Virus record (IMG/VR): IMGVR_UViG_3300025000_000012
Coordinates: 1-62,969 of that record
Reading direction: 5' to 3' (one strand)
Origin: a virus
DNA: 62,969 nt
Position numbers and translations under genes: made by a program. Every line of letters begins with the position of its first letter. Positions within the stretch are counted from its first letter, which is position 1. Below the pieces are notes generated by a model. The model was not told the DNA's origin and made no database searches. It saw only the letters and a list, made by a program, of their open reading frames with translations. Of this stretch, positions 1 through 42,163 are shown piece by piece.

Positions 1-127
1 CCCCCTCCGCCTCTGCTGAAGTAGTACGCGCACCGCAGGGGGTTACTTCTACTGAGACCCCGACTCTTAAAGCTGCTAAGGCTAAAGTAGCAAAGAATAA
101 AAAAGCCACAGCACCTAAAGTCGCTAA
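1..127. repeat. Terminal overlap, an exact copy of 62843-62969 (circular closure of the contig or a short terminal redundancy)
   Basis: Bases 1-127 (ccccctccgcctctgctgaag...aaagtcgctaa) match 62843-62969 base for base. Offset is 62,842 bp. Confidence 0.95.
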
Positions 128-3100
128 GCCCAAGGTTGTCAAGCCTAGGGTTGCCAAAGTTGAGAAGCCCGCTAAAGCCGAGACGCCTAAGGTCGTCAAA
201 GCGGAGAAACCCGTTAAAACTGAGAAGCCCAAAATTGAGAAGCCTAAGGTCGCAGCTAAAGCAAAAGCTGTTGAGGAAAAGAAGACTGCTAAAGAGACTA
301 CTAAAGTCTTGAAGCAGAGTAATGACGAGCGCGCAGCCACTGCAGCTGCGAAGGCTACTGCTGATGCGTTAGCTAAAAATGAGTCCCAAGCTAAGAAGGA
401 CGCCGAGAAAGCAAAGGCCCGTGAAGAGCTCAAGGCGCGTATAACCCCTGAAAAATATAATGAGTATCTCTCTCTGGTTGACGAGATTACGAGCTATACT
501 ACTAAGATTAACAGGGCTGCTCAGAAAGGTGACTTCCAAACGGCCAAAGCCTTAGATCAGTCTAGAAAGATAGCTCAGGCTCGTGTAGCAGCTATAAAAA
601 GTGTACAAACGACCGTCACTGATCAGAAAAAAGATACTAATACGATTGATCAGGCCTCTTCGAAAGTTGAGCAAGACTCAAATGTACAGATTCAGAAAGG
701 GCAAGAAAAAGCGAGTGTAAATCAAGGCTCGCAAGGTAGTTCAGCAAAAGATGTAGAGTCTGAGTTGCAGACCAAACTCGGTGACACTTGGACCTCCCTC
801 AAAACGCTCGGAGCAGCTAAGAAACCCGGTGGTGTAACTATAGTTAATACTGTTCCAGAGGCTCTTGAAGCAATAGGCTCTACTGTTTCAAGACGGAGTG
901 CTAAAGATACTACGACTCAAGCGCTGTATAATCCTAACACCGGGTTATCTGCGATAATAGCTAACAATATTGAGGTAGCTGACGCAGAAGGAATACTGCT
1001 TCACGAAGCTAGTGTTCATGCAATAGAGAATTCTACCCTGGATATGGAAGCTCTGGCACTGTTTAATAATAATAGGCCAACTCCATTTATGCAGTACGTG
1101 GAAGATTCACTCCGCGCAGGTGGGCTCCTTGATGAAGATGGTAATGCTACTGACGCTAATGAGGTGCGCGCCTACATAGTTGAGCATGCTATTAACCTCA
1201 GTCCTCAAAAGACTGTTAACCAGAAGTTTTGGCAATGGCTCAGCTATAATCATCCTAGGATCGCCGCGTACTTGAAGAAAGTAGCTGCGGCTCTTGGGTC
1301 ACACTTTAAGAGTCTAGGTGTCAAGATAGACGAGGGACAGTTAAACGAGGGACAGTTAAACGCGGCAGTAGCTAGTCTTGCAAAAGAAGCTAGGGATGCC
1401 CTGGGTAACGCTGTAAAGACTAAAGACGCGCGGGCTGAAGTCCCTGTCGTAGCATCTGTTAAGGGCTATAAGGAGAACGAAGACGGTGTCTTAGTCAAAG
1501 GCGAAGCTCCAGTAAAACCTGAGAACGTAATACCTCTGAGCTCTGTTAAAGCAGAGAAACTCTCTAAGCAAGACGCCGAGGCTCTTAAAGTCCTTAAAAA
1601 CTTATTTCAGAGTAGACATAAGACTCTCGAGGAAGCCGCAGCTGAGGTTATAGATGACTTTGTTATCTCTACGTCAAATCCAGCCATGCGTAAATACTAT
1701 GAGCTTACGCAGCGGATTAGTAGTTATAAGAGAGACAAGAATAACCAGACGTCAACAGTTTTTGATCGGATAGTTAGCTCACCTGAGTTTTACTTCCCTA
1801 AGACTTCAGCGGGTAAAAAGATTCTGCAAGCCGCTGTTGATGACTCCGATATACGGTACCGTGCGCAGAAACAAGTGCTTGGTGATTTTCTGGATAAGGC
1901 GAACTTGATTCTTAAAAAGAAGCCTAAGGTTTACGCCGCAGTTAATAAGTATTTACTTGACACTGATAAAACCGGAGTAGGCTTCAAGCTTCGTAAAAAT
2001 GGTGAGACCTGGGAGGTTAGAGACCGTAAAGATAAAGTCGTCGCTACACATATGGACGAGGGCGCTGCAAATGCAGATCTTGTTAATGCTGAGCAGGAAT
2101 GGCTTAAGACGCAGCTTATATCAAAGGATGCGCGGGATCTGATTCTCGAAGCCCGGCTTCTTACCAACAGAGCTTTCGATATTCTTATTGCGGATATGCG
2201 TAAGCAGATTACTCGAGCTACTGAGAATGGACTTGACGAGCCCACCGCTATGTTCGTAGACGCGGATGGCAAGACTAATGAAGTATCGCTTACCGAGCTC
2301 ATCGCTAATATGGGTGATCTTCGAGGTACCTATTTTCCTCGTGAACGCGTAGCACGAAACTTTCATCTCGTAGCTGAACAAGAGGGTAAGCCTAGTATCC
2401 TCGAAACATTTGATTGGCACTTCGTTGAGAATGAACTTGGCAATAACCGTGTTCAGATGATGAAGCGTGCTTTTAATAACGCAGCTCCTGCTGGCCGACG
2501 ATACCAAGAGTTACTGAAAGCAGGTTACAAGGCTGAGAATATTAATATCAAGCCCGTGACTTCACCGACAGAGCTCTTATTTGACCTTCCAGGTGTTCTT
2601 GCTTCTCTCGACGCGATTTTTAGTTCTGCTACTGAGAAGATGAATATCGACAGTCTCGAAGAGTCTGATAAACTCTGGATGGGTACTGTTGATAAAGCCC
2701 TAGCTCTACGCGTTGCTGATATCTATAAGGCTAAGGGTAACTTTAGCTCTAGGATGTCTCGAGCTGATAAGCTATGGGAAGGGTATGAGCCTGACATGAT
2801 TCGTGCTCTTACAAGCTACGCTTCACGAGTATCTACGGGCGTAGCCAAGAGAACTACAGCTCGTAAAATGCTTGAGGCCCTAACTGGTCGAGGTGTATCC
2901 TGGAAGCAATACCAAGCACAAGCAGAGAAAGCTAAACAGAAGGTGACTTACCAGGATTACTTAGCATATGTTAAGTCTCAACGGGTAAGCCCGACACAGC
3001 AGAAGATGATGTATGAAGACCTGCGTCAGTACATCAAGTACTTCTTATCACCAGATGACGCGCTTGGTAGAGCTATAGGTTACTTTAAAGCTGCTACGGT

Positions 3101-14280: not shown

Positions 14281-14438
14281 CGGTAAGAGACTGGTTTAAG
14301 AAGAAAGGAAGCACTGCAGAAAAGAAACCCGTAACTAAACCTGTACAGGTGAAAGACAAGACGTCTACTACGATTAAAGGTGCCGTGAAGAATATCACGG
14401 ATCGGAAACGTATGCTTGACGAAGCAGCTGGAATGTAA
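14277..14438 (+). CDS. Unlisted small Lys-rich ORF (53 aa)
   Basis: ATG overlaps the upstream stop (ATGAAATGA) with GGAG 6 nt upstream. Translates MTVRDWFKKKGSTAEKKPVTKPVQVKDK... Below the ORF-track size cut-off. Confidence 0.4.
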   Translation: MTVRDWFKKKGSTAEKKPVTKPVQVKDKTSTTIKGAVKNITDRKRMLDEAAGM

Positions 14439-14471
14439 CTCCTGGTCACCTCCTACGGACCTTTATAATAC

Positions 14472-14576
14472 CCTTTCTTAAAGTGTACATTTGACTATAG
14501 CCGATCGAAATAAAAAAGTGTATAAACGTATTCGAGACTTTCGAAGAGTCAACCTCGATATGTTTATACACTTTTT
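14472..14576. repeat. Copy A of a ~105-bp inverted-repeat-bounded intergenic element, at the convergent junction (likely bidirectional terminator region)
   Basis: Co-linear without gaps with copy B (18843-18947). Identical blocks cctttcttaaagtgta (1-16), ataaacgtattcga (51-64) and tatgtttatacacttt (88-103). Extra internal arm AAAAAGTGTATAAAC (14512-) pairs with GTTTATACACTTTTT (14562-14576). Confidence 0.85.
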
Positions 14577-14603
14577 ATTTAGCTTCTAGAGGCCTAATCT
14601 GAG

Positions 14604-14885
14604 TTATATTTCAACTCGGTTAATGAGATACTTAATCTGCTCCAGGGTAACATGCATTTCATTTAAGGGCTCCGCGGTGCTTCTAAAGTACTCAGAACTT
14701 GGCGCAAAAAATGGTGGCGACGCTTCAGAGCATACTCGAGGATCTTCAACGATCAAGCAGCTTACGCGGGCCTGCACGAGGTCACGAATTTCAAAAATAA
14801 ATCCACGCATCTCATTTAACTTACGTACAAACTGCGCGCCTTCAGTATCTTTAGGATTTAACATTGGTCTACCTGCTTCTAACAT
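14604..14885 (-). CDS. Hypothetical protein (93 aa)
   Basis: GGAG 6 nt before the ATG. Last gene of the leftward block. Preferred over the antisense ORF 14623..14898 by strand context. Confidence 0.5.
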   Translation of the reverse strand: MLEAGRPMLNPKDTEGAQFVRKLNEMRGFIFEIRDLVQARVSCLIVEDPRVCSEASPPFFAPSSEYFRSTAEPLNEMHVTLEQIKYLINRVEI

Positions 14886-15327
14886 ACCATTCTCCTAGTA
14901 GCTCAGGTTCAATAAATACTACGGTTAGTTTTGCGTCCTCAATTAACTCAACAACAAACTCTTGATTCCATGATGACTCAGGGTCTATTGGTAGAGTCAC
15001 TATAGTCTTGATCCTCCCATTTTGAATTATGTTTCCGAGACACTGCGTACACGGTAAGCAGGGATAGATATAAATAGTATCCCCTATACCGTCAGCAGAA
15101 ATAAGACAGTTCACTTCAGCATGAACCATCAACAAGTTCTTCAGCTCTTTATCAGCCAATCTATATGGCGTGTCCTCTATACCTGTAGGAAACCCATTAT
15201 AGCCAACGCCTCGTATTCTATGACCCTCGGTGATGACTGCTCCGACTTTCTTATTGGGGTCCTTTGACCAGAGAGATACATGCCGAGCGAGCTGAAGATA
15301 TCGGACCCTCCATTTATCAATTTGCAT
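14869..15327 (-). CDS. dCMP (deoxycytidylate) deaminase
   Basis: Zinc-binding signature HAEVNCL ... PCLPCTQC. 152 aa. Confidence 0.9.
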   Translation of the reverse strand: MQIDKWRVRYLQLARHVSLWSKDPNKKVGAVITEGHRIRGVGYNGFPTGIEDTPYRLADKELKNLLMVHAEVNCLISADGIGDTIYIYPCLPCTQCLGNIIQNGRIKTIVTLPIDPESSWNQEFVVELIEDAKLTVVFIEPELLGEWYVRSR

Positions 15328-15328
15328 A

Positions 15329-16090
15329 TCAGTCTACTCGCATCATCGCTTCAAGCTCATCAATATCCTTCTGGGTAAGTCCTTCACCAGTCTCCGCAGC
15401 TTTCAGAAACGTAAATAACTTGGTCTTCCAGTCAAGATCTCGGTTATCCCAGTCAAGGAATAATCTAACTGCTTGCATAGGTGGAAGCCAGTATCCCTTC
15501 CTGGAGTACTTCATACATCGCAGAGTAGAGGATACCGGACAATGTATATTCTTTAACCGCAGGATTCTACGCGGCTCATCGTGCTCGAAGTCCGCGTCAA
15601 CTAACGCAGACTCTGCGGTCACTAACCCGCAGCGTACCACAGTAAAGTCAAAGTTTTCCAAGATATCCATCAAACTGCCAGTAGCGACGATTTTGCCCTC
15701 TTTTACTGGTTTAATAATCTGGATAACTGGCGTCTGAAACAGAGGACTCTCTGGGTCATCCACTTTTTTAAACGTTACAGCCATTGTGTTTTCGTGGACT
15801 ACGGAGACATTGTACTTCTTTTCCATCAACTCACGGAACTTGGTGAAGCTATCCTCATCTGGAAAATAAACATCGACATCGCCCGCGCGTTCTACGGACT
15901 TACTAGTTGAGCACATATACCGCACGTACCCTCCGCAGATAAGCCCGCCATACTCGCGTACAAGTGTAAACAACGTAGATATCTCAGTAAAGCCGCGGTA
16001 GACTTTGCTCGGTACAAAACCATCTTTTGATATATACGAGGGTTTCTTCTTTTCTTCCAAGTCGGTAGCATCGTCGATAAGATCTTCCAT
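15329..16090 (-). CDS. Nucleotidyltransferase-fold (Pol-beta superfamily) protein (253 aa)
   Basis: GGLICGGYVRYMCS...AGDVDVYF fits the G[GS]-x(n)-DxD head motif of Pol-beta NTases and resembles the GGxVRD..DxD head of CCA-adding/poly(A) polymerases. Inference from the motif only. Confidence 0.5.
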   Translation of the reverse strand: MEDLIDDATDLEEKKKPSYISKDGFVPSKVYRGFTEISTLFTLVREYGGLICGGYVRYMCSTSKSVERAGDVDVYFPDEDSFTKFRELMEKKYNVSVVHENTMAVTFKKVDDPESPLFQTPVIQIIKPVKEGKIVATGSLMDILENFDFTVVRCGLVTAESALVDADFEHDEPRRILRLKNIHCPVSSTLRCMKYSRKGYWLPPMQAVRLFLDWDNRDLDWKTKLFTFLKAAETGEGLTQKDIDELEAMMRVD

Positions 16091-16092
16091 AG

Positions 16093-17457
16093 TTAATCTC
16101 CTATTCCAGTTGTTTGTTTTAAATAATCCAGTAGAGCGTTCTGCCCTTTCAATTTCATCTGCAGTGCTTTCATAATCTTCTCATCCACGGTACCCTTAGC
16201 AACAAGATGATGAAATATACAGACGTGCTTCTGGCCTTGTCTCTCTATCCTGGCATTTAATTGCAGGTAATGTTCTAAACTCCACGGCAACGCGTACCAT
16301 ACCAAGAGGTGTGACCCCATTTGAAGGTTGACACTGTGCGATAGTGAGGCCGGATGACATATTAAGAGGGGCACCTCACCTCTGTTCCACGCATCAACAA
16401 TGGCCTTGAACTCTTCAATTTTAGATCCACCCACAATAGCCGGTGTTCCAGGGAATGCTTTAAGAAGCATGTCCAGCTCAAACCTAAACTGGATAGCACA
16501 AAGTATTCCCTGGCCATTAGCCTCTTCAACCAGGGATTTTAGTATCTCGAGCTTCTCTGTGTGGATAACTTCATAGTTCCGTTTCTCATCAATGTATAGT
16601 CCTCCCTGGATAACTTGCCTGAGCTTCATAGACAAGGACGCTGCGAAGTTAGCGGTAACCGTCGTCTCTTCACTCAGCTTAAGCATTAACTCTTTCTCAA
16701 AGGTCTTGATCTTCTGCATCACCGGAGCGGAGAGCTTGACACTTATGATATTGTCAACCCGTCCAGGCATGGTCAGATAATCTGCCGCTTCGAGTCTGAA
16801 TGTTATATCGGACACGCGCTTATGAATCTCTACTTCGTGTGCGGGTGACTGCAGCTCCCAGCAAAAGATGCTATACGGTTTTTGCCGAAAGAATGTTTTA
16901 CGGTACGTAGTGATGTCTTTACCAAGCCTCTTGCCTCCGTCAAGAAGATAATATTGGGACCATAGATCGAGTAACGAGTTAGGCGCAGGTGTGCCACTCA
17001 AAATCAAGATAAACTCTCTACATAAGTCCTTGATGTGCTTCAAGGACTTAAACCGCTTTGTAGCATGACTCTTGACCATGGAACCCTCGTCAAGAATCAT
17101 CGCCTTAAACGGCAAAGGCCTCTTAGCTTTAAACATCCGCTTTAGTTCTTCAAAGAGCCACTGTATGCCATCAAAGTTAATGATATACAGATCAGAGATT
17201 CCTGTAAACTTCTTACTAGGACCATGTAGTACTTGATACGTCAACTCGGGCGTCCACTTCTCGATCTCATCTGGCCAAGTAGTCTTTACAGCTCGTAGCG
17301 GCGCAATAACCAGGGTGGGTACCCGTACTTCCCGCACCACTTCTAAAGATATCCGCGTCTTACCTAACCCCATATCGATCATTTGATACACAAATCTACG
17401 AGCTAAACAGAACGCTATTGCCCGATCTTGATATGCGTGTAATGGTGGGGTCGTCAT
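16093..17457 (-). CDS. SNF2-family DEAD/DEAH-box helicase (454 aa)
   Basis: Motif I DMGLGKT, motif II MILDEGS, C-terminal helicase lobe (LLICHPASLSHSVNLQ). Confidence 0.9.
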   Translation of the reverse strand: MTTPPLHAYQDRAIAFCLARRFVYQMIDMGLGKTRISLEVVREVRVPTLVIAPLRAVKTTWPDEIEKWTPELTYQVLHGPSKKFTGISDLYIINFDGIQWLFEELKRMFKAKRPLPFKAMILDEGSMVKSHATKRFKSLKHIKDLCREFILILSGTPAPNSLLDLWSQYYLLDGGKRLGKDITTYRKTFFRQKPYSIFCWELQSPAHEVEIHKRVSDITFRLEAADYLTMPGRVDNIISVKLSAPVMQKIKTFEKELMLKLSEETTVTANFAASLSMKLRQVIQGGLYIDEKRNYEVIHTEKLEILKSLVEEANGQGILCAIQFRFELDMLLKAFPGTPAIVGGSKIEEFKAIVDAWNRGEVPLLICHPASLSHSVNLQMGSHLLVWYALPWSLEHYLQLNARIERQGQKHVCIFHHLVAKGTVDEKIMKALQMKLKGQNALLDYLKQTTGIGD

Positions 17458-17951
17458 ACGTTTCCCTTTTTATCCCAAGGGCCTCTATTACTGCACTGCT
17501 CTGAAGCCGTACTAAACTTACAGTTCGTCGGGGAATAGTCTGCGTCATTATCTATTCGGTCTATAGATAAACCTTCAACGTAGTTATCGTCATACCACTT
17601 ATAAAAGCTATATGAGTCTTTTAGCCATTCCACACAGATGCCTATACCTCGGTCACCGTAGTATTTAAAATCTCGGTTAGCATAATTATGACACCGCGTT
17701 TTCATATTCTTTAATGCGGTTACGCCTTCACGGTGCTTAATTACATATCTATTAGGTGATAAGCCCCTTTTACAGCCGCAGCTTACAGATTTTCCGCTTG
17801 ATAAACTAGCGCGGGCTATATATTTTGTAACTCCACACGAGCACTGACAATTCCAGTACGTAACACCGCGTCTAGCTTCATAAGGCCCTATTACTGTTAG
17901 GTCCCCGAATACCGACCCGGTTAGATCAATAAAATTATGTGCTACTCGCAT
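17454..17951 (-). CDS. HNH-family homing-endonuclease-like / DNA-binding protein (165 aa)
   Basis: WNCQCSCG...VSCGCKR cluster and LSIDRIDNDADYSPTNCKFSTASEQCSNR (H-N-N type core). Confidence 0.6.
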   Translation of the reverse strand: MRVAHNFIDLTGSVFGDLTVIGPYEARRGVTYWNCQCSCGVTKYIARASLSSGKSVSCGCKRGLSPNRYVIKHREGVTALKNMKTRCHNYANRDFKYYGDRGIGICVEWLKDSYSFYKWYDDNYVEGLSIDRIDNDADYSPTNCKFSTASEQCSNRGPWDKKGNV

Positions 17952-17967
17952 AAACCTCCTTTAGTAT

Positions 17968-18186
17968 TTAAATACCGGCTTTTGTACCCGTAAGGTACTC
18001 AAGTATCATTTGGTCCTCCTGCTCTTGAAACCACTTAGCAAGCTGGTCTTTCGCGAGCTCACGATAATTAACGTATACCTGAGCGGGTATAAACTCTTCG
18101 ATAAACGCAGCTGACGGTAGCAGCGTACTAGCTACCGCAGTCGCGAATAAAGACTTCATGAAGTTCCGTCTACTAAGAGTGCTCAC
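17968..18186 (-). CDS. 72-aa protein with a consensus twin-arginine (Tat) signal peptide
   Basis: MSTLSRRNFMKSLFATAVASTLLPSAAF matches S-R-R-x-F-[LM]-K plus an h-region and an AxA-like site. Confidence 0.65.
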   Translation of the reverse strand: MSTLSRRNFMKSLFATAVASTLLPSAAFIEEFIPAQVYVNYRELAKDQLAKWFQEQEDQMILEYLTGTKAGI

Positions 18187-18347
18187 TCATCCTCCCTTGA
18201 TATGCCCGGAAACCACGCGTCATCATAATCAAGATCCTCTTCGTCGAGGTCTTCATCGTCGTCGTCATCGTCTTCATCATCGTACGGCGTCATAGTGTCA
18301 AGTCTATGCTGACCCTCTGCCGCCGCATCTTTATATTTCGGTCTCAT
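18183..18347 (-). CDS. Hyper-acidic 54-aa protein
   Basis: Start re-set to ATG 18347 (AAGGAGG 8 nt upstream). MRPKYKDAAAEGQHRLDTMTPYDDEDDDDDDEDLDEEDLDYDDAWFPGISREDE has 18 of 22 residues acidic in the core. Confidence 0.65.
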   Translation of the reverse strand: MRPKYKDAAAEGQHRLDTMTPYDDEDDDDDDEDLDEEDLDYDDAWFPGISREDE

Positions 18348-18390
18348 GATTAGAGTCCTCCTTAACAGACATAGTACGTGGCTTACGTGG

Positions 18391-18498
18391 TCACGTAGGT
18401 AGTACCAGAATTTTATCTGGCTTAGTAGTACCGGCCCAGCGATCACAAGTTATATGACAATCATGCTGAGCTTCATTACATCCACAGTATAATATCAT
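18391..18498 (-). CDS. Unlisted Cys/His-rich mini-ORF (35 aa)
   Basis: TAATG stop-start overlap with the upstream ORF. Translates MILYCGCNEAQHDCHITCDRWAGTTKPDKILVLPT. Competes with the long version of ORF 18183..18446. Confidence 0.35.
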   Translation of the reverse strand: MILYCGCNEAQHDCHITCDRWAGTTKPDKILVLPT

Positions 18499-18632
18499 TA
18501 GCGCCACCTCCAAGTAGTTCGTTTATTACAGTGTTGTACCGCAGGACAGTATCTACAAAACCGATACTCTCCTGAGTAGCACCAGCTATGTATACCAAAG
18601 AAACATTTTACTTTTTGTATGAGGCCAGGCAT
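18498..18632 (-). CDS. Cys-rich mini-protein (44 aa)
   Basis: ATG 18632 lies 2 nt after the upstream stop with GGGAG upstream. Translates MPGLIQKVKCFFGIHSWCYSGEYRFCRYCPAVQHC... Confidence 0.5.
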   Translation of the reverse strand: MPGLIQKVKCFFGIHSWCYSGEYRFCRYCPAVQHCNKRTTWRWR

Positions 18633-18633
18633 A

Positions 18634-18834
18634 TCAATCTCCCTCAGGTACAGAGTCTTTAGCCTCAAACCATACACCACGAGACCCACAGTAGGCCTCG
18701 CTAAATCGCATATCCTTGGCGTCCTTATTATTAGTGAACACATGGCCGGAGATTAGGTCACTATGTCCTCTTGATTGCTGACAGGACCCAAACTCCACTC
18801 GATAATGTTTACATCTTCTGCAGGCGGGTATCAT
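18634..18834 (-). CDS. Cys-rich small protein (66 aa)
   Basis: ATG preceded by AAGGAGA embedded in the TACACTTTAAGAAAGGAG motif. CRRC...C...CG pattern. Confidence 0.65.
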   Translation of the reverse strand: MIPACRRCKHYRVEFGSCQQSRGHSDLISGHVFTNNKDAKDMRFSEAYCGSRGVWFEAKDSVPEGD

Positions 18835-18842
18835 TTACACTC

Positions 18843-18947
18843 TCCTTTCTTAAAGTGTATAATTGCTCTATACGAGACAATTATTTTGTCTAGATAAACG
18901 TATTCGAAGCGTATGAAAATCAGGCCGGCCTATGTTTATACACTTTC
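18843..18947. repeat. Copy B of the ~105-bp inverted-repeat-bounded intergenic element
   Basis: Arms AAAGTGTATAA (18851-18861) and TTATACACTTT (18936-18946) are a perfect 11-bp inverted repeat. Central ATAAACGTATTCGA is identical to copy A. The left arm carries the SD of gene 18634..18834. Confidence 0.85.
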
Positions 18948-19133
18948 TAGAACATGAATAGGAGCCTTGTTTCGACAGTTTGAACAAACCTGTACGTCGT
19001 CTATCCGCTCAACTCTTATATGTAATCCCAGATTCTCAAAGAGTGCTCGAATCTTTACAGCGTGTGCGTCACAGCAAAATATAGCTCGAGTTGGTGTATG
19101 CGCAATAAAGTACGCAGGATATTTGTTGCTCAT
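18936..19133 (-). CDS. Cys-rich small protein (65 aa)
   Basis: CCDAH...CSNC. ATGA overlap with the ligase gene. The last 7 codons are encoded by the repeat-element arm. Confidence 0.55.
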   Translation of the reverse strand: MSNKYPAYFIAHTPTRAIFCCDAHAVKIRALFENLGLHIRVERIDDVQVCSNCRNKAPIHVLESV

Positions 19134-20874: not shown

Positions 20875-21819
20875 CTATTTCTTGTAACGTTGTCCTATCC
20901 ACCCTTTAGCTTGTAACTGCGCGTCAGGGCACCATTCAATATTACACAGATGACGATTAAAAGTATCCATCGTTGTATCAGTGATATCTTCGTTTTTAAT
21001 TATCCCCATAGCTTCATCATGCACACTTGCCACTAACTCTACTTCAGGCATAAAGTCTCTGATGTTCTGCATTCCCTGTCCCATTACTTCTCTGGCAGAG
21101 CCTTGAGTCGCGTTCTCAGTTATACGGCCGGGGGTTAATCTTAAACGTACCCACTTTTTGGTGTAAGGATCTGTACCCATGTGGGTGACTGTAGGTACTG
21201 GTCCCATGTATTCGTAATCAGGGATAAGAAAATCTTTAACCTGCGGTTTCATGTAGTAGATACATTTACCGGAGGGTAACTTCATCGCTAGCCAGAGGAT
21301 ACCGTTAACCTTGGCTAAGCCGAAGGTAATCCTTTTATATGTACTCTGTTGACCAGAGATGACCGTACGAGCTGCGGCGTTCTTAAGTCCTGACCACAGC
21401 TCTTCGATCAGGAAGTACTTGGCGCGGTAAGACTTAATAGCGATGCTTGACTCATCTAGGGAAACCTCCATGCCAAACTGAACTTTAGCGGTCTCTTTAA
21501 ACTTCTTAGCACCCATTTGGTAACCCGCCCCGAGGACGATTACCTTACCCATTTGGCGTTGTGCCGCACAAACTGGGTCTTCAGCTTTATAGCCTTCATA
21601 AATATCTTTATAAGACTTGTTATACCGAGCAGCAGCCATTGTAATATACTGGTCAATGCCGTTCTTAAAATCGTTGAGAGTCTCGTAGTCTTCTGCCAGC
21701 CACGCAAGGATTCTGTTTTCAATACCCGAGTAGTCTGAGACGATGAGGGAGCAGCCGTTCGGTGCTTTGATCATAGGCCGTATTAAAGCCTTTGCTGTGC
21801 CAATCGGATTTTCAATCAT
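20875..21819 (-). CDS. Family-A DNA polymerase, C-terminal part (palm/fingers, 314 aa)
   Basis: Motif A SDYSGIENRILAWLA, motif B RQMGKVIVLGAGYQMG, motif C VASVHDEAM. ATG overlaps the upstream stop (ATGA) with GGAGG 7 nt upstream. Confidence 0.9.
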   Translation of the reverse strand: MIENPIGTAKALIRPMIKAPNGCSLIVSDYSGIENRILAWLAEDYETLNDFKNGIDQYITMAAARYNKSYKDIYEGYKAEDPVCAAQRQMGKVIVLGAGYQMGAKKFKETAKVQFGMEVSLDESSIAIKSYRAKYFLIEELWSGLKNAAARTVISGQQSTYKRITFGLAKVNGILWLAMKLPSGKCIYYMKPQVKDFLIPDYEYMGPVPTVTHMGTDPYTKKWVRLRLTPGRITENATQGSAREVMGQGMQNIRDFMPEVELVASVHDEAMGIIKNEDITDTTMDTFNRHLCNIEWCPDAQLQAKGWIGQRYKK

Positions 21820-22880
21820 ATTACCGCCTCCAGAAACTCTTGTATGCGCTCTTCAGGATTAGGGACTGATGCTCTAGGTAAGTTATGAACCTGGAATCCT
21901 CGGCCCGCCCATCTACCAGGGCCTGCGCCATGGAACTGTACATTGTCATGTACCCAGTATTGATCACCAACTTTACGTGCTTGAGCTGCAAGCTTTGTGA
22001 ACTTAGCAGTCGAGGATCGTCCAAGCTCTTGCCGCATCTCAAGAACCTCTCGAACATTCTCTGGACAACTAGGATCGTCAAGACCTGCTTGTACAGCAGC
22101 GGCATCAAGAGTATCCATAGGAAATCCGTTTTCACCGCACCATGCTTTAATCTTCTCTAACTGGCCAAGTGTCTTAAACGCGCCACCGCTCTTCTCAGGA
22201 ACACACTCAAGGGCTTTAAGGACATATGTACCCAGATAGTCACGAATAGCTACGATGGCTTTGTAGTCTATGGGCAGCCCGGTTGTATTCATCTCGTACG
22301 TAAGTTCCCAAAGTCTCTGCTCCTTGGGAATAAGAACCTTACGAGGCAGAGTGTAGACAATCTCACGCATAGCCTCGATGTCACGTTTGCAGTACTCATA
22401 AAGCCGGCCGAAGTGTACACCATTAACACCCCAAGGTGTAGGTTGAACCCCTGACTTGGTAGGTACACAGCAGAGCTTTATGAGCTTGAGGCCGTCAGCG
22501 CTCTTAGGCATAGAGATACCAAGAGCTTCACCTGCGTTATGAAGACTAGCAGGTACGCCAAATGTTTGGCACAGCGCCATCGAATCTATAACCTGACCAA
22601 GTGATAGTCGTGGCCAGCACAGCTGCTCGTGGCCGATGAAGTTCCAGATTCTATAGTCAAATGTGGCATTGTGCGCATACACGGGTTGACCAGAGAGTAC
22701 GTGCTCAATTATATCTGGGTGAAGCTCATCTGCAGGAGTGAATACCGACACTGGTTCTTTGTCAAAGGCGTAGCCCATGCAGACGATCTGAGTTGACGGA
22801 TGCGTGGCATAGTTCATGCCACCACGTTTCTTAATATCCACGGCTGAATATGTTTCAAAGTCTACGAAGAGGTCACTCAC
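21816..22880 (-). CDS. Family-A DNA polymerase, N-terminal part (3'-5' exonuclease plus thumb, about 354 aa)
   Basis: ExoI FVDFETYS, ExoII AHNATFDYRIW, ExoIII YCKRDIEAM. Start re-set to GTG 22880 (GGAGGAAG upstream, after the stop of the 22900 gene). Confidence 0.85.
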   Translation of the reverse strand: MSDLFVDFETYSAVDIKKRGGMNYATHPSTQIVCMGYAFDKEPVSVFTPADELHPDIIEHVLSGQPVYAHNATFDYRIWNFIGHEQLCWPRLSLGQVIDSMALCQTFGVPASLHNAGEALGISMPKSADGLKLIKLCCVPTKSGVQPTPWGVNGVHFGRLYEYCKRDIEAMREIVYTLPRKVLIPKEQRLWELTYEMNTTGLPIDYKAIVAIRDYLGTYVLKALECVPEKSGGAFKTLGQLEKIKAWCGENGFPMDTLDAAAVQAGLDDPSCPENVREVLEMRQELGRSSTAKFTKLAAQARKVGDQYWVHDNVQFHGAGPGRWAGRGFQVHNLPRASVPNPEERIQEFLEAVI

Positions 22881-22899
22881 TGTTTCTTCCTCCAGCGGT

Positions 22900-23160
22900 C
22901 TAAATATTCCATGAAGCAATTTCTGTTGGCTTTTCACCTTGAACAACAATAGTCTCAAACATCAGCGCATCACAGATATACTGCATGCATGTTCCAATAG
23001 TTTTGAATTCTACTACTGGATATGGCTTCTGTCTTTCATCCATAGCTTTATATTTTCCAGGGCCCCCGCGTATTCTAAAGGCGCGGCCTTCTCTAATATA
23101 GATGTCCCAATGCCCGGGATTACGATGAATGACTTCGAAACTTAGGGGTGTAGTATTCAT
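22900..23160 (-). CDS. Hypothetical protein (86 aa)
   Basis: ATGA overlap with the upstream gene. No motif recognised. Confidence 0.6.
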   Translation of the reverse strand: MNTTPLSFEVIHRNPGHWDIYIREGRAFRIRGGPGKYKAMDERQKPYPVVEFKTIGTCMQYICDALMFETIVVQGEKPTEIASWNI

Positions 23161-23435
23161 ATCTTTTTCTCCGGCTTATTAGAAATTTCCATCCCATGTT
23201 GAAGTGCTTCAATATATACCACGCAGAAAACTTTCCATAATGGATGTATTTGAATATGCTTGTCTACTTGTGGTCCTACTAATTTCCATACTTCTTCCAT
23301 GTGAATTTCATCCGGGATTTTATCCCATGAATTAATTGGATAATGAGGTACTTTACATGGGCCTATATTTACATGGGTACCTTCTAAAGCTTTTTTCTGA
23401 GCTTTTTGATCTTTATCAAAGCCTAGCTTATTCAT
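23157..23435 (-). CDS. Hypothetical protein (92 aa)
   Basis: ATGA overlap with the upstream gene. No motif recognised. Confidence 0.6.
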   Translation of the reverse strand: MNKLGFDKDQKAQKKALEGTHVNIGPCKVPHYPINSWDKIPDEIHMEEVWKLVGPQVDKHIQIHPLWKVFCVVYIEALQHGMEISNKPEKKI

Positions 23436-23959
23436 ATCTTTCCCTCTCGTTTAAGTCTAAACCAGATTAACGCCAGACTGTTCCAGCAAATCGCAACATC
23501 GTGTGGCATACCAGACTCTGGGTCAATGTTAAACCGGCCCTCGTTAATATGTCGCCAAAAGCCGTCGAGGTACCGTTGCTCTGCGTCCTCAACAAGCATC
23601 CATGACCCTCGGTTATACTTGCCGAAAGGCTTGTTATTCATAGACCCGAGCTTGGCCACCTCTTTAAGTGCGGGTAGAAAATCCTCAAGGACTCCGGCCA
23701 TATACTTACCCTGGTCGAGCTTGTTTTCGTCAGGCGGCATAAAGTCTTTATATGTGTCGTCAAGAGCTGGAAAAATTTTATTAACCGTAGTAGGTTCGGT
23801 ACGCGTAGTATTACAGAATATACAGACATACTGATATTTTTTATTAACGCAGTTATACCTGTACCTGAATATTGCTTTAGGGTTATCGCAGCCCGCGCAG
23901 AAGCCAACAATATCTTCTGTACAAGACTGGTGTGGTAGCTTTTGTACTAGAGGTGGCAT
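23432..23959 (-). CDS. All-alpha NTP pyrophosphohydrolase of the phage dATP/dGTP diphosphohydrolase (DUF5664-like) type with an N-terminal zinc ribbon (175 aa)
   Basis: KLDQGK...FGKYNRGSWM...YLDGFWRHINEG...DPESGMPHDVAICWNSLALIW resembles that family as I recall it. N-terminal CAGC...CIFC. Confidence 0.6.
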   Translation of the reverse strand: MPPLVQKLPHQSCTEDIVGFCAGCDNPKAIFRYRYNCVNKKYQYVCIFCNTTRTEPTTVNKIFPALDDTYKDFMPPDENKLDQGKYMAGVLEDFLPALKEVAKLGSMNNKPFGKYNRGSWMLVEDAEQRYLDGFWRHINEGRFNIDPESGMPHDVAICWNSLALIWFRLKREGKI

Positions 23960-23963
23960 ATTT

Positions 23964-23984
23964 CTCCTTTCTAAAAGTGTATAT
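23964..23984 (-). promoter_or_regulatory. Solo copy of the TACACTTTnAGAAAGGAG motif, directly upstream of the 23959 start codon
   Basis: Minus-strand reading is ATATACACTTTTAGAAAGGAGAAATATG. Same motif as at 18842-18863, 14471-14490, 41314-41332 and 41506-41530. Confidence 0.6.
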
Positions 23985-23995
23985 TTATTGCCATG

Positions 23996-24022
23996 AAAAA
24001 GGACCCTACTCTCGCAGGGCCC
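23996..24022 (-). terminator. Rho-independent terminator after the SSB gene
   Basis: Minus strand reads GGGCCCU-gcgagagu-AGGGUCC (7-bp stem with one G-U pair) followed by UUUUU. Confidence 0.6.
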
Positions 24023-24058
24023 TTCTTATTACGGGATATTACATCAGCTGTGGGCTAC

Positions 24059-24732: not shown

Positions 24733-25137
24733 TTAAGAGGTGATAGTGGTGGCTAACGCCGGTGTCGATGCTTTCGTATCAGGAAATACCTCCTTATGTT
24801 CACCACTGGCCATACGCTTCAGGTTGTTCGCTAAGACCCATTCAAAGCGGGCCTGAAGGTCAAATGCGTCAAAGTCAAAACACTTAGCGATGTTGATTAA
24901 AAAGAAAAAACAGTCTATAATCTCGCGGCTTATATTATCCCGATCTATAGACCCCGTTTTCCATGAAGCAAATGGCCAGGAGGAGGCAAGTTCGCCGACT
25001 TCTACACTAAGAGCTAAGACACACTCATTAGCGTACTGTAGCTTCTTTTCTGGTGTTAAGTCTTGAAACACAACACCCCGAAGGTTAGCTTGTGCTACAA
25101 CTTGGCCCATCATTTTATAGAGTGTAAGCTCATTCAT
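24733..25137 (-). CDS. MazG / dimeric-dUTPase-like all-alpha NTP pyrophosphohydrolase (134 aa)
   Basis: LSVEVGELASS (ExxE) and REIIDCFFFLINIA (E..D) helices. Confidence 0.6.
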   Translation of the reverse strand: MNELTLYKMMGQVVAQANLRGVVFQDLTPEKKLQYANECVLALSVEVGELASSWPFASWKTGSIDRDNISREIIDCFFFLINIAKCFDFDAFDLQARFEWVLANNLKRMASGEHKEVFPDTKASTPALATTITS

Positions 25138-25959: not shown

Positions 25960-26631
25960 TCAGGGATTCCAGGATTGAGCTTCACATTGCAAGAAGCCTT
26001 GTTTGCAAGTATCCATGTAGCACTGAGGCCCTACATGGCAAAACAACTCAGGAAAATGCCCGTGTACCAGTGATAGTACCCGCTCAGCAAACACCTGCAT
26101 CTCGTCTACATTACGATTACAGGTACGCTGGCGCAAGAAGAACATGAGGTTACGGGCATCTATGGTCCATAAATAATTAACCGCAGCAGCGTTAGGTAAA
26201 ACCTGACGGGCTTCTTCCCGAGGAACATTGAGCTTAAGCAGATCACCGTATGCTTTGTATGTAGCATCTAAGGCGCTCTGCATTATAATTTGTGCAGTGG
26301 GCGATACATTGCCGGTGACGCATGGGTAGTCTGAGTAATCTTGGTAGTGCTGAGACCCACTTGTCGGGGACCCAGTTCGTTGACGGGTGATTTGTGCGAG
26401 AAATGACCTTGATACACCCTGGATAAGGAACGTATAAACTACGTGCTCGAACAAGGATGTGTGTTCGGCGTTGATTAAGAACTTAGCTTTTGCGGCGGTG
26501 AACTTTGGAATCTCCGCATCTGCTTGGGCATTCATGGTAATACTCTGAGCAAGAGCAACCATCTCCGCTGGATAAGGAGTTGCTTGCATGAGCTCGATAC
26601 TCATTTTGTCGTACGACTGGACGTTTGGCAT
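25960..26631 (-). CDS. thyX: Flavin-dependent thymidylate synthase ThyX homologue with an atypical signature (223 aa)
   Basis: EHTSLFEHVVYTFLIQGVSRSFLAQITRQRTGSPTSGSQHY aligns to the ThyX RHRxxSxxxxSxRY signature, but reads RQR...S....SQHY. Start re-set to ATG 26631 (AGGAGG 7 nt upstream). Confidence 0.75.
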   Translation of the reverse strand: MPNVQSYDKMSIELMQATPYPAEMVALAQSITMNAQADAEIPKFTAAKAKFLINAEHTSLFEHVVYTFLIQGVSRSFLAQITRQRTGSPTSGSQHYQDYSDYPCVTGNVSPTAQIIMQSALDATYKAYGDLLKLNVPREEARQVLPNAAAVNYLWTIDARNLMFFLRQRTCNRNVDEMQVFAERVLSLVHGHFPELFCHVGPQCYMDTCKQGFLQCEAQSWNP

Positions 26632-26650
26632 TCTACTTCCTCCTACTAGG

Positions 26651-26684
26651 AAAACCCCTTTCACGATTGCTCGCGAAAGGGGTT
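26651..26684 (-). terminator. Rho-independent terminator
   Basis: Minus strand reads ACCCCUUUC-gcgagcaaucgu-GAAAGGGGU followed by UUUCC. Lies between the wHTH gene and thyX. Confidence 0.6.
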
Positions 26685-27260: not shown

Positions 27261-27327
27261 GGTCGTTCCTCCAGATTATTGTGTGGTTGTGTAATTAGTG
27301 AGGGTCTTCCTCACTTTCGTATAACTT

Positions 27328-27356
27328 ATTATAGTCTAAATCTAAGCTAAAGTAAA
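27328..27356 (-). promoter_or_regulatory. sigma70-type promoter TTTACT-N17-TATAAT
   Basis: -35 at 27356-27351, -10 at 27333-27328. GTGAGG/CCTCAC hairpin (27298-27314) at about +7. Confidence 0.7.
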
Positions 27357-27429
27357 CAATTATTTTTCAAAACTGAAAAATAAAAGGTTCAAAATTTTGT
27401 ACTTAGCGGGCCCATCTTGCGCGGCCTAG

Positions 27430-31350: not shown

Positions 31351-31410
31351 AGAACCTCCGCGTTATGGTGTTTAGTGTTCGTGAGATTAACTTCTCACTC
31401 TTTATAATTA

Positions 31411-31439
31411 ATTATACACCAGTTTTATGCAAAAGTAAA
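31411..31439 (-). promoter_or_regulatory. sigma70-type promoter TTTACT-N17-TATAAT
   Basis: -35 at 31439-31434, -10 at 31416-31411. GTGAGA/TCTCAC hairpin (31381-31398) at about +6. Shares TATAATTAATTATAAAGA with the 35.7-kb promoter. Confidence 0.7.
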
Positions 31440-31443
31440 CTCT

Positions 31444-31593
31444 TTATTTCCCAGAGAGTGAATTAATATCTCTGTGAATCTTGGTGTACGCTTGGAAGTC
31501 TCCTGAGAACGCTAGAGTCTTCGGTCCATATATTGCGAATACTATACTAAACACGGTGATAAATGCGGCCAGAAAATAGAATAGATTCTTCAT
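31444..31593 (-). CDS. Unlisted small hydrophobic-N-terminus protein (49 aa)
   Basis: GGAGGAACTAACATG. Translates MKNLFYFLAAFITVFSIVFAIYGPKTLAFSGDFQAYTKIHRDINSLSGK. Below the ORF-track size cut-off. Confidence 0.55.
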   Translation of the reverse strand: MKNLFYFLAAFITVFSIVFAIYGPKTLAFSGDFQAYTKIHRDINSLSGK

Positions 31594-34141: not shown

Positions 34142-34413
34142 TAGTCTTCCTCCAAGGGACTATAAAGATTAGCATATGGGTTAACGCCAGGTGCATCACT
34201 GTTTTGATCAGACATGCAGCGATTAGCCCTGACATCGTAAGATGGTGGAAACACGGTAGGTACACGGTTCGTGATGTTATCCACCGTCTCAACAGGACCG
34301 ATAGGTTCACCACACCAAGCGCATCCGTGGTACTTATATGTACGGGATACACCTGGCGCTATTACATGCGACCGAAGATACTTAGTTACTGAAGCCGTAT
34401 TGCAGTCACACAT
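34141..34413 (-). CDS. Cys-rich small protein (90 aa)
   Basis: MCDC...HGCAWCGEP. Overlaps the end of the CXX-repeat gene by 8 nt. Confidence 0.55.
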   Translation of the reverse strand: MCDCNTASVTKYLRSHVIAPGVSRTYKYHGCAWCGEPIGPVETVDNITNRVPTVFPPSYDVRANRCMSDQNSDAPGVNPYANLYSPLEED

Positions 34414-35706: not shown

Positions 35707-35745
35707 AATTAATTTATTATAGACTGTATTTCTTCTTTATAATTA

Positions 35746-35774
35746 ATTATAAACTAATTAGTCACCAAAGTAAA
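35746..35774 (-). promoter_or_regulatory. sigma70-type promoter TTTACT-N17-TATAAT
   Basis: -35 at 35774-35769, -10 at 35751-35746. Confidence 0.65.
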
Positions 35775-35857
35775 TACTTTCTTTTCCAAAAGTGAAATTG
35801 GTGTAGGCTGGAAATAACAATGGCCACACTAAGAGTAGCATGGCCAGGTGATAGTAT

Positions 35858-39600: not shown

Positions 39601-39665
39601 ATGATGTGCTCCTGCGCAGGATCCTCAACTCCAGTAATATTAATTTAATTCCTGGATAAAAAAGA

Positions 39666-39694: not shown

Positions 39695-39756
39695 TATATT
39701 ATATAAAAAGCAGAAACTTCTTCTGCTTAATTAAAACTTAGTACTGGAGAAACACT

Positions 39757-40022: not shown

Positions 40023-40052
40023 TATAAAGTAAAGCTCTACAGCATCTGGTGT

Positions 40053-40511: not shown

Positions 40512-40808
40512 TCATTCCTCTTTTTCCTCATAAATCCGGCCCTTTGAATCCTTTCCAAACTTCAAACCATCCTTACGAAGATATGACAACTGACTCGACA
40601 CATTGCGCTCACTAATGCCGATCGCTTCGCCAATATCTTTGATGCTAATCCGACCATTTGTCCTTATCAGATTGACGACTTGCTCTTTCCGACCTTCACC
40701 TTTCTCGCCGACTTTCTTGACCAGCTCTTCGCGCTCCGCCTTCAAAGCCGCAATCTCTTCAAGCAGCAGTTCCATTTCCGATTTTGCACTCTCGTTTTCT
40801 TTCTTCAT
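40512..40808 (-). CDS. Winged-HTH DNA-binding protein with an N-terminal coiled coil (98 aa), candidate regulator
   Basis: ELLLEEIAALKAEREELVKK, then GRISIKDIGEAIGISERNVSSQLSYLRKDG. Paralogous to the N-terminus of 26718..27260. Confidence 0.7.
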   Translation of the reverse strand: MKKENESAKSEMELLLEEIAALKAEREELVKKVGEKGEGRKEQVVNLIRTNGRISIKDIGEAIGISERNVSSQLSYLRKDGLKFGKDSKGRIYEEKEE

Positions 40809-40863: not shown

Positions 40864-40892
40864 ATTATATCATATTTCACAATATACACAAC
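40864..40892 (-). promoter_or_regulatory. Candidate promoter for the 40808 gene (TATAAT -10, weak -35)
   Basis: TATAAT at 40869-40864. -35 GTTGTG/TTGTGT 16-17 nt upstream. Confidence 0.35.
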
Positions 40893-41228: not shown

Positions 41229-41333
41229 AGACCTCTCAATACACTTTGTGTACAGCTTCTCTGAGTCATTACTCTCGTGAAATCTGGAATCCCTTAACTC
41301 GCCTGTACACATTTAGAAAGGGCTACACTGAAT
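41229..41333 (+). repeat. Two degenerate direct repeats: GAATCCCTTA followed by the TACAC(T/A)TT motif
   Basis: agaatcccttagacctctcaatacactttgtg (41229-) and ggaatcccttaactcgcctgtacacatttagaaaggg (41297-41333). Confidence 0.7.
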
Positions 41334-41414: not shown

Positions 41415-41530
41415 CTCTCTAGAAAGTGTATAACAGCCCTTCTGCTCTCATTTCATCAAGTCCGAGTACAAACGTATACCTAAAATTTTCGGTCAGTCTA
41501 AGGCTCGTTTATACACTTTCAGAAAGGGCC
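41415..41530. repeat. Copy D of the ~105-bp inverted-repeat-bounded element, upstream of the late operon
   Basis: Arms AAAGTGTATAAC (41423-) and GTTTATACACTTT (41507-41519), central ACAAACGTAT. The right arm continues CAGAAAGGGCC (full motif, plus orientation). Confidence 0.8.
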
Positions 41531-41582: not shown

Positions 41583-41611
41583 TTTACTTTTCAGCTTAAC
41601 TAGGGTATAAT
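41583..41611 (+). promoter_or_regulatory. sigma70-type promoter TTTACT-N17-TATAAT
   Basis: -35 at 41583-41588, -10 at 41606-41611. About 55 nt upstream of the 41666 gene. Confidence 0.7.
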
Positions 41612-41665: not shown

Positions 41666-42163
41666 ATGCTGGATTTAGAGCTCATGCGGTTGCAGTACGA
41701 AATCCTCAATAAGTCGATCGCTCAGATAGCGTCGGACGAGGAGACTAGTGCCACGCTGCTCCAGCGAGAGGCCACCGAGCTCGGCTGGAAACAATTCTGG
41801 CCAGACCCGCCTCAAAAGCCGTATGAAGAGACCGATGACGTCGATGAGATTATGTCTCTCGAGTCAGAACAGTATATCGACCGTGCCCGGAAACGCTTGA
41901 AGGTCTACTCCCTGGCCAAGGAAGTCCTGATGGCCCAGCGGTATCTTGCCCTTGAGTGCAAAATCGTAAAGACCGCTAGTGATATTCTGGATAACTTTGA
42001 GAGTAATGGGCTCGGCAGCTCACAGGCTATTAAGCAACTGAGTGCCCTGTTCAAAGACATGACTGCTGGGTCGAATCTTGCGAACTTAGCCTCAATGACG
42101 CTAGGCACTGACGATAATGGCTTACCGACAGTCACGATCAGGGACCTCTCTGGTCATAGATAA
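41666..42163 (+). CDS. Hypothetical protein, possible small terminase / DNA-binding subunit (165 aa)
   Basis: First gene of the rightward block, two genes upstream of TerL. The assignment is positional only. Confidence 0.45.
   Translation: MLDLELMRLQYEILNKSIAQIASDEETSATLLQREATELGWKQFWPDPPQKPYEETDDVDEIMSLESEQYIDRARKRLKVYSLAKEVLMAQRYLALECKIVKTASDILDNFESNGLGSSQAIKQLSALFKDMTAGSNLANLASMTLGTDDNGLPTVTIRDLSGHR

Follow-up and report, generated by a model that had tools for sequence, protein, structure and literature searches.

Dispersed copies of a single DNA motif are known from several phages, among them the stoperators of mycobacteriophage L5 and other cluster A phages, which are bound by the gp71 repressor, and the conserved inverted repeats of the Streptomyces phage phiC31. 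Stoperators lie mostly in short intergenic gaps beside start or stop codons, are asymmetric and oriented with transcription, and beside the regulator gene their motif acts as a genuine operator. Composite sites include lambda cosB, where R3-I1-R2 is bound by a winged-helix dimer of gpNu1 together with IHF, and the repressosome formed by GalR and HU at gal; in these, inverted protein-binding sites tens of base pairs apart flank an architectural bend site, and helical phase has to be kept by the spacing. Bacterial RIP/BIME-1 units, the Correia elements of Neisseria and REPINs are intergenic units of about 100–150 bp with inverted ends and a less conserved interior that are present in many copies and are located at the 3' ends of genes or between cistrons; RIP and Correia elements carry a central IHF site. 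Two inverted sites and a central site within ~100 bp are a known arrangement, seen in lambda cosB, bacterial RIP/BIME and Correia elements. Lastly, in the Rep proteins of iteron plasmids (F RepE, pPS10 RepA), a winged-helix protein reads either a long asymmetric site or a partly shared inverted repeat.

The element described here is genuine and conserved and, judging from sequence, is best explained as a new variant of these operator and architectural designs. Like the L5 and phiC31 sites, it has an asymmetric arm that follows transcription, and it sits in short intergenic gaps, with the exception of one copy inside an ORF (copy E). Whereas a stoperator is a single 13-bp site, the phage element is a composite of ~105 bp made of two everted half-sites and a centre; it also differs from the L5 and phiC31 sites in that it occupies only 4–6 sites per genome, that no lysogeny genes were found and that its repressor is a candidate. 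It resembles cosB and gal in its inverted sites, in the block midway between them, in a spacing that keeps helical phase and in a winged-helix binder, which is predicted here; the distance between the arms is 83 bp, whereas gal has 113 bp and cosB ~50 bp. A small-terminase-like gene follows shortly downstream of copy D, a further likeness to cosB. However, lambda has one cos site where this phage has four copies of the element, the centre matches the IHF consensus poorly, and the binding known for lambda is here a prediction. Unlike RIP, Correia and REPIN units, which number tens to hundreds in their hosts and are mobile or recently so (as seen in Correia duplications and REP hairpins), the element has non-palindromic arms, no visible duplication and positions that are conserved between diverged phages. 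The proposal shares with Rep the use of two site modes by one winged-helix protein; Rep, in contrast, has two winged-helix domains and tandem direct iterons at an origin, whereas the phage protein has one such domain and its long sites are inverted and 83 bp apart. An earlier note on this DNA knew of no phage element with conserved ends, a conserved centre and variable filler, and our literature searches did not contradict it, a search by element sequence having returned nothing relevant, though the design itself is known from the systems above.

The window analysed, 62,969 nucleotides with a GC content of 45.5%, is a complete phage genome assembled as a circle, its ends joined by a 127-bp overlap (1-127 = 62843-62969), and is identical to the groundwater-metagenome contig k127_115315 (ENA ERZ909587, PRJNA268031). 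A leftward gene block runs from 38.6 kb down to 14.6 kb and encodes a PriCT-2/VapE primase-helicase, a DUF2800 nuclease, ThyX, SSB, a MazZ-like dNTP diphosphohydrolase, DNA polymerase A (in two ORFs), a ligase, an SNF2 helicase and a dCMP deaminase. The rightward block begins with a small-terminase-like gene at 41666, followed by Endonuclease VII, which thus stands between the small-terminase-like gene and terL, then terL and a P22-type portal; it crosses the genome junction and ends at 14438. Among ~70 scanned ORFs we found no integrase, ParA/ParB, other recombinase or lysogeny gene, the sole recombinase trace being a weak SAM-like domain match (E=0.019). No close relative was found among cultured phages by near or protein-level matching; the best terL matches, to Pseudoalteromonas and Burkholderia podoviruses, are <50% identical. 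A metagenome scan with terL returned only 11 loci, all ≤63% identical and mostly on contigs known from the viral-contig scan. The related phages used for comparison (L-numbers) were found via terminase, SSB, the terS-like protein and ligase.

Three copies of the element, here called A, B and D, had been noticed earlier, and all are present. Searched by nhmmer with a profile of 13 elements from 9 contigs (alignment A2; E in 1 Mb), copy A lies at 14472..14576 (minus strand, E=5.9e-16), copy B at 18844..18948 (minus strand, E=7.9e-18) and copy D at 41415..41527, which is matched on both strands (E=2.1e-18 on the minus and 1.1e-7 on the plus strand). Copy B is real, though it had been placed at 18843-18947, one base to the left of its true register; with 18844-18948 the reported gap-free alignment of A and B holds, and positions 1–16 (CCTTTCTTAAAGTGTA), 51–64 (ATAAACGTATTCGA) and 88–103 (TATGTTTATACACTTT) are identical. 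The filler between these blocks is unrelated, as had been stated: A and B match at 17 of the 58 remaining positions (29%), which is chance level. The offset of 2–3 nt described for copy D corresponds to 2 extra bases between its arms, with arm centres 84 bp apart compared to 82 bp, and the inverted-repeat ends likewise proved correct, the arms being inverted repeats of 11–13 bp. The tally of three full copies fell one short, since a fourth, copy E, exists at 586..702 (plus strand, E=6.1e-7). In the window, the 13-mer AAAGTGTATAAAC has 9 matches at ≤2 mismatches compared to 1.9 expected, a number reached by 0 of 100 shuffles, and the gapped pattern TGTATAA-N60-90-TACRCTTTNAGAAAGG has 3 matches compared to 0.00 expected.

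Copy A sits where the leftward replication operon converges with the end of the rightward late operon. Its arms are at 14479-14491 and 14562-14574 and its centre at 14522-14535, with an extra full motif at 14515-14527 that forms, together with the arm at 14562-14574, a long, terminator-like hairpin with T-runs on both strands. The suggestion of a processing or termination module fits this copy only, as a terminator scan found none at B or D, and an intrinsic terminator was rejected as a general reading because hairpin and T-run coincide at copy A only. L087 has, after the element, a GC-rich terminator that is separate from it.

Copy B fills a gap of 101 bp. On one side stands a 65-aa ORF, located after the ligase gene, with its stop codon at 18936-18938; on the other, the following gene starts with an ATG at 18834. 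The arms of copy B are at 18852-18864 and 18934-18946, its centre is at 18894-18907, and an extra degenerate site, GCGTATG, lies at 18909-18915. A sigma-70 promoter was sought by the criterion of -35 and -10 at 16–18 bp spacing, the -10 having A at position 2 and T at position 6. This candidate was rejected: the one match, on the plus strand at B (18834-18863), is chance-like and unconserved in A, C, D and L024. The arm variant TGTACGC lacks the key -10 adenine. A promoter for a phage RNA polymerase or sigma factor was rejected as well: the long arm resembles promoters of the T7/SP6 type, yet ORF scans of the window found no gene for an RNA polymerase or a sigma factor.

Copy D has its arms at 41423-41435 and 41507-41519, the latter with an extension AGAAAGG to 41527, and its centre reads ACAAACGTATAC at 41468-41479, then CTAAAATTTTCGGTC at 41481-41495. 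Downstream of it, about 60–200 bp away, lies the sigma-70-like promoter of the packaging/late operon (TTTACT-17-TATAAT, 41583..41611, plus strand). Copy E has arms at 598-610 and 680-692, 82 bp apart, the centre CTAATACGATTGATCAGGCC and an extension CAGAAAGGGC to 702. It is located, in frame, inside a virion-type ORF of ~2,190 aa that runs from 60760 across the genome junction to 4490; relatives of this giant ORF were sought as a test of the conservation of copy E, and none were found. The downstream part of the giant ORF, a 1,393-aa ORF at 309-4490, has no DxDGD motif. The placement of the elements at module boundaries therefore stands for A, B and D and fails for copy E.

The window also contains half copies, each consisting of one arm and its extension. 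Half copy C (23963..23986, minus strand; repeat family D11) reads ATATACACTTTTAGAAAGGAG, then ATG at 23959, and directly follows the GC-rich terminator hairpin of the SSB gene (~23990-24030), an arrangement also found in L024, L025, L029 and L087. An isolated long arm, CTGTACACATTTAGAAAGGGC, lies at 41302..41323 (plus strand; repeat family D8).

A search of related phage genomes had been proposed in the earlier note, and there the elements are present with their block spacing largely kept. The three-block element occurs at equivalent sites in at least 8 related uncultivated phages, the proteins of which are only about 45–65% identical. In L024 and L087 it follows the ligase gene; L024, L087 and L088 carry it where the leftward operon ends, or close to that point; and in L002, L007, L009, L010, L080, L081 and L084 it lies upstream of terS. 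L088 has one extra element after its DUF2800 gene, where the window has none. Occupancy is patchy among distant relatives, L086 being without elements, and the 640 bp upstream of terS in L079 (to the contig end) are without copy D. In the alignment of 13 elements, only the blocks are conserved across relatives, while the filler varies; their consensus sequences are AAAGTGTATAAAC, AATACGTTTMTATAGGCC (often after TTCGAAA or CCGAAAA) and GTTTATACACTTT-N-AGAAAGG. Chance and recent duplication are thereby excluded, and the blocks are shown to be under selection.

The distance between arm centres is 82, 82, 84 and 82 bp in A, B, D and E. In the relatives it is 83 bp in seven elements, 82 and 84 bp in one each, with outliers of 73 and 105 bp. 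Thirteen of the 15 elements thus fall at 82–84 bp, and the outliers differ by -0.95 and +2.1 helical turns. Arm spacing is quantised in helical turns, by an argument built on these two outliers only. In A, B, D and L007, the distance from the centre to either arm is 39–44 bp (coordinates read off printed sequences). AA/TT periodicity in the filler peaks at ~11–11.5 bp, with p~0.004 that is uncorrected for 9 periods and confounded by the aligned centre block.

These comparisons bear on whether the element could be a miniature inverted-repeat mobile element or a host-type repeat (REPIN, BIME/RIP or Correia-like) that spread in the lineage and was perhaps co-opted as a binding site. Such an origin would be in keeping with the 13-bp terminal inverted repeats, the length of ~105 bp, the presence of several copies in a genome, of which one lies in frame within an ORF, and the patchy site occupancy among distant relatives (L086, L088, L079). 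One Clostridia MAG moreover contains at least 8 intergenic composites with the same 13-mer and an 82-bp period, a repeat family in which the 13-mer recurs in four units and which lies at the 3' ends of genes, though the bacterial matches amount to 3 independent families compared to ~1–2 expected (an estimate from uniform base composition), which is not above chance and makes the family a lead only. The interiors of copies from the same genome are unrelated, as the 29% identity of A and B illustrates; none of the 15 elements has a target-site duplication or a consistent direct repeat at its border, the inverted repeat ending at the arms in all 15; and the window yielded no gene for a transposase or a RAYT-like protein. 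Three near-identical genomes match the window at 100% identity over stretches of 9–13 kb that span copies A and B. The conservation of sites A, B and D across phages with proteins of only 50–60% identity further argues that the blocks are held by selection rather than by recent copying. The mobile-element interpretation is consequently weak, and we regard it as very unlikely.

Each element has one longer arm, which reads TATACACTTT-N-AGAAAGG along the flanking genes and has 6 matches in the window. The extended arm (N-AG(A/T)AAGG) always points with the flanking genes, at A, B, C, D, E and 41302-41323 and in all relatives. Its purine run is the Shine-Dalgarno sequence of the next gene at B and C; at A, D, E and 41302-41323 the AGAAAGG extension has no start codon downstream.

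This arrangement could reflect a structured RNA in the sense transcript, in which a long-range stem of the two arms around a variable region would act in processing, stability, attenuation or translational coupling near the ribosome-binding site. The arms can pair over 10–13 bp, with folds at z = -3.4 to -4.2 relative to full shuffles, several arm differences (A, L024, L007) become G-U pairs in the sense strand, the 3' arm adjoins the Shine-Dalgarno sequence in B, C and relatives, and the arm that bears it is always sense-oriented. However, for 15 arm pairs 75.9% of cells pair compared to 78.1% in partner shuffles (486 of 500 shuffles at least equal), and arm covariation is 0.073 compared to a shuffle mean of 0.088, so there is no compensatory signal. 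Since neither pairing nor covariation is higher than in partner shuffles, each arm appears to follow the consensus and not to be tuned to its partner. L087_A and L088_E have C-A mismatches in the sense strand; with the arms fixed, 13 of the 15 interiors show no better folding than their shuffled versions; and in A and both L024 elements one arm prefers pairing with the centre region over the other arm. Extended self-complementarity was seen only in two L088 copies, equally on both strands, and a hairpin or cruciform of the whole element was rejected, being significant only in two L088 copies. The orientation of the centre block relative to the Shine-Dalgarno-bearing arm is the same in A, B and E-type elements and opposite in D-type elements, a flip that a binding site tolerates and a defined RNA fold cannot. 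Rfam gave no match at the gathering score for the whole window and no relevant match at E≤1 for 14300-19100, and the same heptamers recur as arrays of tight palindromes in untranslated regulatory DNA. With no Rfam match, no compensatory changes, no filler folding better than shuffles and a variable centre orientation, a structured RNA is poorly supported and in our view quite unlikely.

The palindromes offer a more direct view of the arm motif. Relatives carry the arm heptamer TATACAC head to head, as 17-bp palindromes TATACAC-TTT/AAA-GTGTATA, in arrays located between a leftward winged-helix gene and terS; there are ~10–12 copies in L007, 6 in L012, 4 in L084 and 2 each in L080, L079 and L065. 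The window has one tight palindrome of this form, AATACAC-TTT-GTGTACA, at 41236..41252. An inverted repeat of 7-3-7 is the classic site of a dimeric helix-turn-helix protein. Single half-sites occur as well: ATATACACA at 40882..40890 (plus strand) overlaps the likely -35 of the winged-helix gene, a promoter assigned by inspection, and TTATACACC (GGTGTATAA on the minus strand) at 31412..31420 (plus strand; repeat family D3) overlaps the -10 of one conserved early leftward promoter. The palindromes and copy D, by comparison, stand off the nearest promoters by about 60–400 bp and do not lie over them.

The winged-helix gene (40512..40808, minus strand) encodes 98 aa with a match to Pfam HTH_24 (E=6.9e-7), and its product is the only clear DNA-binding regulator found. 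In the AF2 model (pLDDT 87), a winged helix-turn-helix comes after an N-terminal helix of 33 residues, and Foldseek relates the model to the dimeric repressors ArsR/SmtB, MarR/SlyA and MecI at E~6e-3, with which sequence-level hints agree. Homologues lie upstream of terS on the opposite strand in nearly all relatives, and 20 homologues show no or almost no variation in the recognition helix RNVSSQLSYLRKDG, just as the heptamer hardly varies; covariation of helix and motif across relatives is not informative because both vary too little. The 98-aa protein is the likeliest candidate for the binder of the arms, a candidacy that draws on synteny and co-conservation only. A second candidate is the small-terminase-like protein of 165 aa (41666..42163, plus strand), the AF2 model of which (pLDDT 81) begins with a three-helix bundle, continues with a helix of 55 residues and ends in strands. 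The protein has no Pfam or PHROG match, and its Foldseek matches to HTH domains are non-significant. This protein or a host protein could be the binder instead.

The earlier note listed four interpretations without choosing among them: a structured RNA, a looping operator, a processing or termination module and a miniature mobile element. The operator for a dimeric or tetrameric regulator fits best, given the arrayed 17-bp palindrome, the helical-turn spacing and the lack of arm covariation, and the others are poorly supported. We propose, with about an even chance of being right, that the elements are composite sites at which a protein binds double-stranded DNA in helical phase, operators of the looping or roadblock type with the winged-helix protein as their candidate binder. 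The arms (AAAGTGTATAAAC and its inverse) would be split half-sites of the operator TATACAC-WWW-GTGTATA, placed ~8 helical turns apart with the third block (AATACGTTTMTATAGGCC) about midway. A dimeric or higher-order DNA-binding protein, likeliest the 98-aa protein, would occupy the arms, and the centre may take up a further subunit or mark a sharp bend, so that ~100 bp of DNA would be looped or wrapped. The resulting complex would act on transcription at operon boundaries and gene junctions as a roadblock, silencer or insulator, copy D being the putative upstream control site of the packaging operon.

Several observations favor the operator. First, the arm motif is the half-site of palindromes arrayed beside a conserved winged-helix gene. 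Second, the invariance of the recognition helix matches that of the heptamer, and the fold is like that of dimeric repressors. Third, one single half-site overlaps an early promoter at its -10, and another overlaps the likely -35 of the winged-helix gene. The constant co-orientation of the long arm with the flanking genes suggests a polar block to transcription, and sites at gene junctions, after a terminator, at a convergent operon end and upstream of the packaging promoter suggest a barrier, silencer or insulator. Weighing against it, the palindromes and copy D lie far from promoters, copy E lies inside a late structural gene, which is odd for a transcriptional operator, and the Shine-Dalgarno-like AGAAAGG is also found at sites with no downstream gene. 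In addition, a silencing repressor would have no obvious role in the life cycle, since no integrase or lysogeny gene was found.

The same binding could instead serve chromosome architecture, through a kind of phage site not described before, a reading we consider conceivable but rather unlikely. One winged-helix protein would then use two geometries of the heptamer, tight arrayed palindromes and everted half-sites eight turns apart around a centre block, the latter forming wrapped polar barriers of ~100 bp that partition domains of transcription or replication. The repeats with an 82-bp period in Clostridia are a hint that bacteria, too, may have this system or a host partner of it.

Cis sites for DNA replication or packaging are a serious rival to the operator, although on balance an unlikely one. 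The arms would be recognised by an initiator, the small terminase or the primase-helicase, with the centre as the place of bending or cutting, as modelled on P4 ori/crr, SPP1 oriL/oriR, SPP1 pacL-pacC-pacR and lambda cosB (R3-IHF-R2). At the level of DNA, the non-covariation of the arms, the spacing and the palindromes support such sites equally. The small-terminase-like gene stands a short way downstream of copy D and the palindrome arrays, the position of Endonuclease VII between that gene and terL is in keeping with packaging, and the location of the copy at 586-702 within coding sequence is common for ori and pac sites. There are also GTTCAC direct repeats at 40940-41080, and near them lies the gene for the PriCT-2 and VapE primase-helicase, which is of the P4 alpha type. 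P4 iterons read TGTTCACC. On the other hand, the fillers are not AT-rich, and 4–5 sites per genome with a Shine-Dalgarno-bearing arm always co-oriented with transcription are unexpected for pac or cos. Half copies adjoin ribosome-binding sites, and what Foldseek matches to the terS-like protein does not reach significance.

Binding by a host protein such as DnaA or IHF appears extremely unlikely. By inspection, the arms TTATACAC(T) differ from the DnaA box TTATNCACA at only one of 9 positions, but TTATNCACA at ≤1 mismatch is not enriched in the window (62 matches compared to 60.5 expected), and the invariant CAC-TTT flank is not a feature of DnaA boxes. The reverse centre TATAAACGTATTA matches the IHF consensus WATCAANNNNTTR at 5–8 of 9 positions (inspection, alignment A2), always without the C of the core, a key base of that site. 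The heptamer is conserved across phages from different environments, as sites of a host protein might be.

If the phased operator is correct, this lineage of groundwater and sediment phages would control its genome by a few large nucleoprotein sites and not by operators that cover promoters, extending the idea of dispersed repressor sites in mycobacteriophages and phiC31 to a new design. Constraint by protein binding alone would then suffice for conserved ends and a conserved centre with variable filler, with no need of RNA structure or transposition, a lesson useful for sorting similar metagenomic finds. The proposal is directly testable, because it names the 98-aa protein, the 17-bp palindrome, the 105-bp composite site and a predicted dependence on helical phase.

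A conserved sigma-70-like promoter family of the form (A)GTTTACTTTT-N14-15-TATAAT recurs once per 4-5 kb through the leftward replication operon and is also present at both rightward starts. Members were located on the minus strand at 27316-27370, 31399-31453 and 35734-35788, with further ones at 38840-38812 and 24671-24643, and on the plus strand at 39632-39703 and 41582-41611. The divergent control region is repeat-dense beyond its TATACAC sites (window 39978-40024, 40074-40352 and 40940-41080), containing four to five copies of a 10-bp iteron ATCATGTAAC, direct and inverted repeats of 36-42 bp (CACTATCATCCAGT), GCTACGCTCC repeats, and GTTCAC-N4-GTTCAC direct repeats, which resemble the iterons to which the P4 alpha primase-helicase binds. 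This region may be the replication origin.

Upstream of terS, several relatives carry a second conserved motif, AAAATTTTCGG, alongside the TATACAC sites. It was found at window 41481-41495 and, among contigs of related phages, at 1165-1180 in L084, where it forms the perfect palindrome CCGAAAATTTTCGG, at about 1400-1415 in L080 and at 940-1180 in L007. Two other relatives showed palindromes of their own: a variant, ATATACTC-TTT-TAGTATAT, in three tandem copies upstream of terS in L002 (10138-10235), and a related form, ATACTAATTTAGTAT, after the SSB terminator in L086 (about 5790-5810), where the single-arm half copy of the three-block element would stand. Intergenic composites of ~330 bp were observed in contigs of Clostridia bacterium ELA502 (L090, L092 and L094-L099; for example, L094 2860-3140), each consisting of four TTTTTACAAAT-N16-AAAAGTGTATAAAA units, two forward and two reverse, with 82 bp between direct units and terminator-like hairpins separating the outer units from the inner ones. 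This one MAG contains at least eight copies, all at gene 3' ends, and an Rfam search with the composites returned no match.

The two ends of the window share a 127-bp exact direct repeat (1-127 and 62843-62969), most likely an overlap left by circular assembly at k=127; with this overlap removed, the true genome length is most likely 62,842 bp. An ORF of ~2,190 aa crosses the junction (window 60760-62842 plus 1-4490) and is broken in two by an ORF listing of the linear window. The N-terminal third of its product is Lys/Ala/Gln-rich and of low complexity, Pfam gave nothing informative, and no DxDGD motif was found in the part checked (309-4490).

DNA polymerase A is encoded by two overlapping ORFs in the window (20875-21819, 314 aa, and 21816-22958, 380 aa) but by one gene of 659-679 aa in relatives (L001 2990-4996, L086, L087 and L088). 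The interval from the three-block copy B to the SNF2 helicase gene (17454-18834) is occupied by several small ORFs together with a gene for an HNH endonuclease (17454-17951), whereas in L001, the closest relative, it holds one small ORF only. A nucleotide-metabolism cluster (window 14869-15327, 23432-23959, 24733-25137 and 25960-26664) comprises genes for a dCMP deaminase, a MazZ-like dATP/dGTP diphosphohydrolase, a dUTPase_2-type enzyme and ThyX, and the phage DNA may accordingly contain a modified base; the scanned ORFs included no PurZ.

Tandem repeats also occur inside coding sequences. In the ORF at 34406-35077 (223 aa), for which a Pfam search gave no match, a 9-bp unit is repeated in tandem at least 33 times (34585-35017), encoding a protein of three-residue repeats, and the ORF at 47510-48580 contains three tandem copies of the 15-bp unit AAAGAGGAAACACCG (47741-47793).
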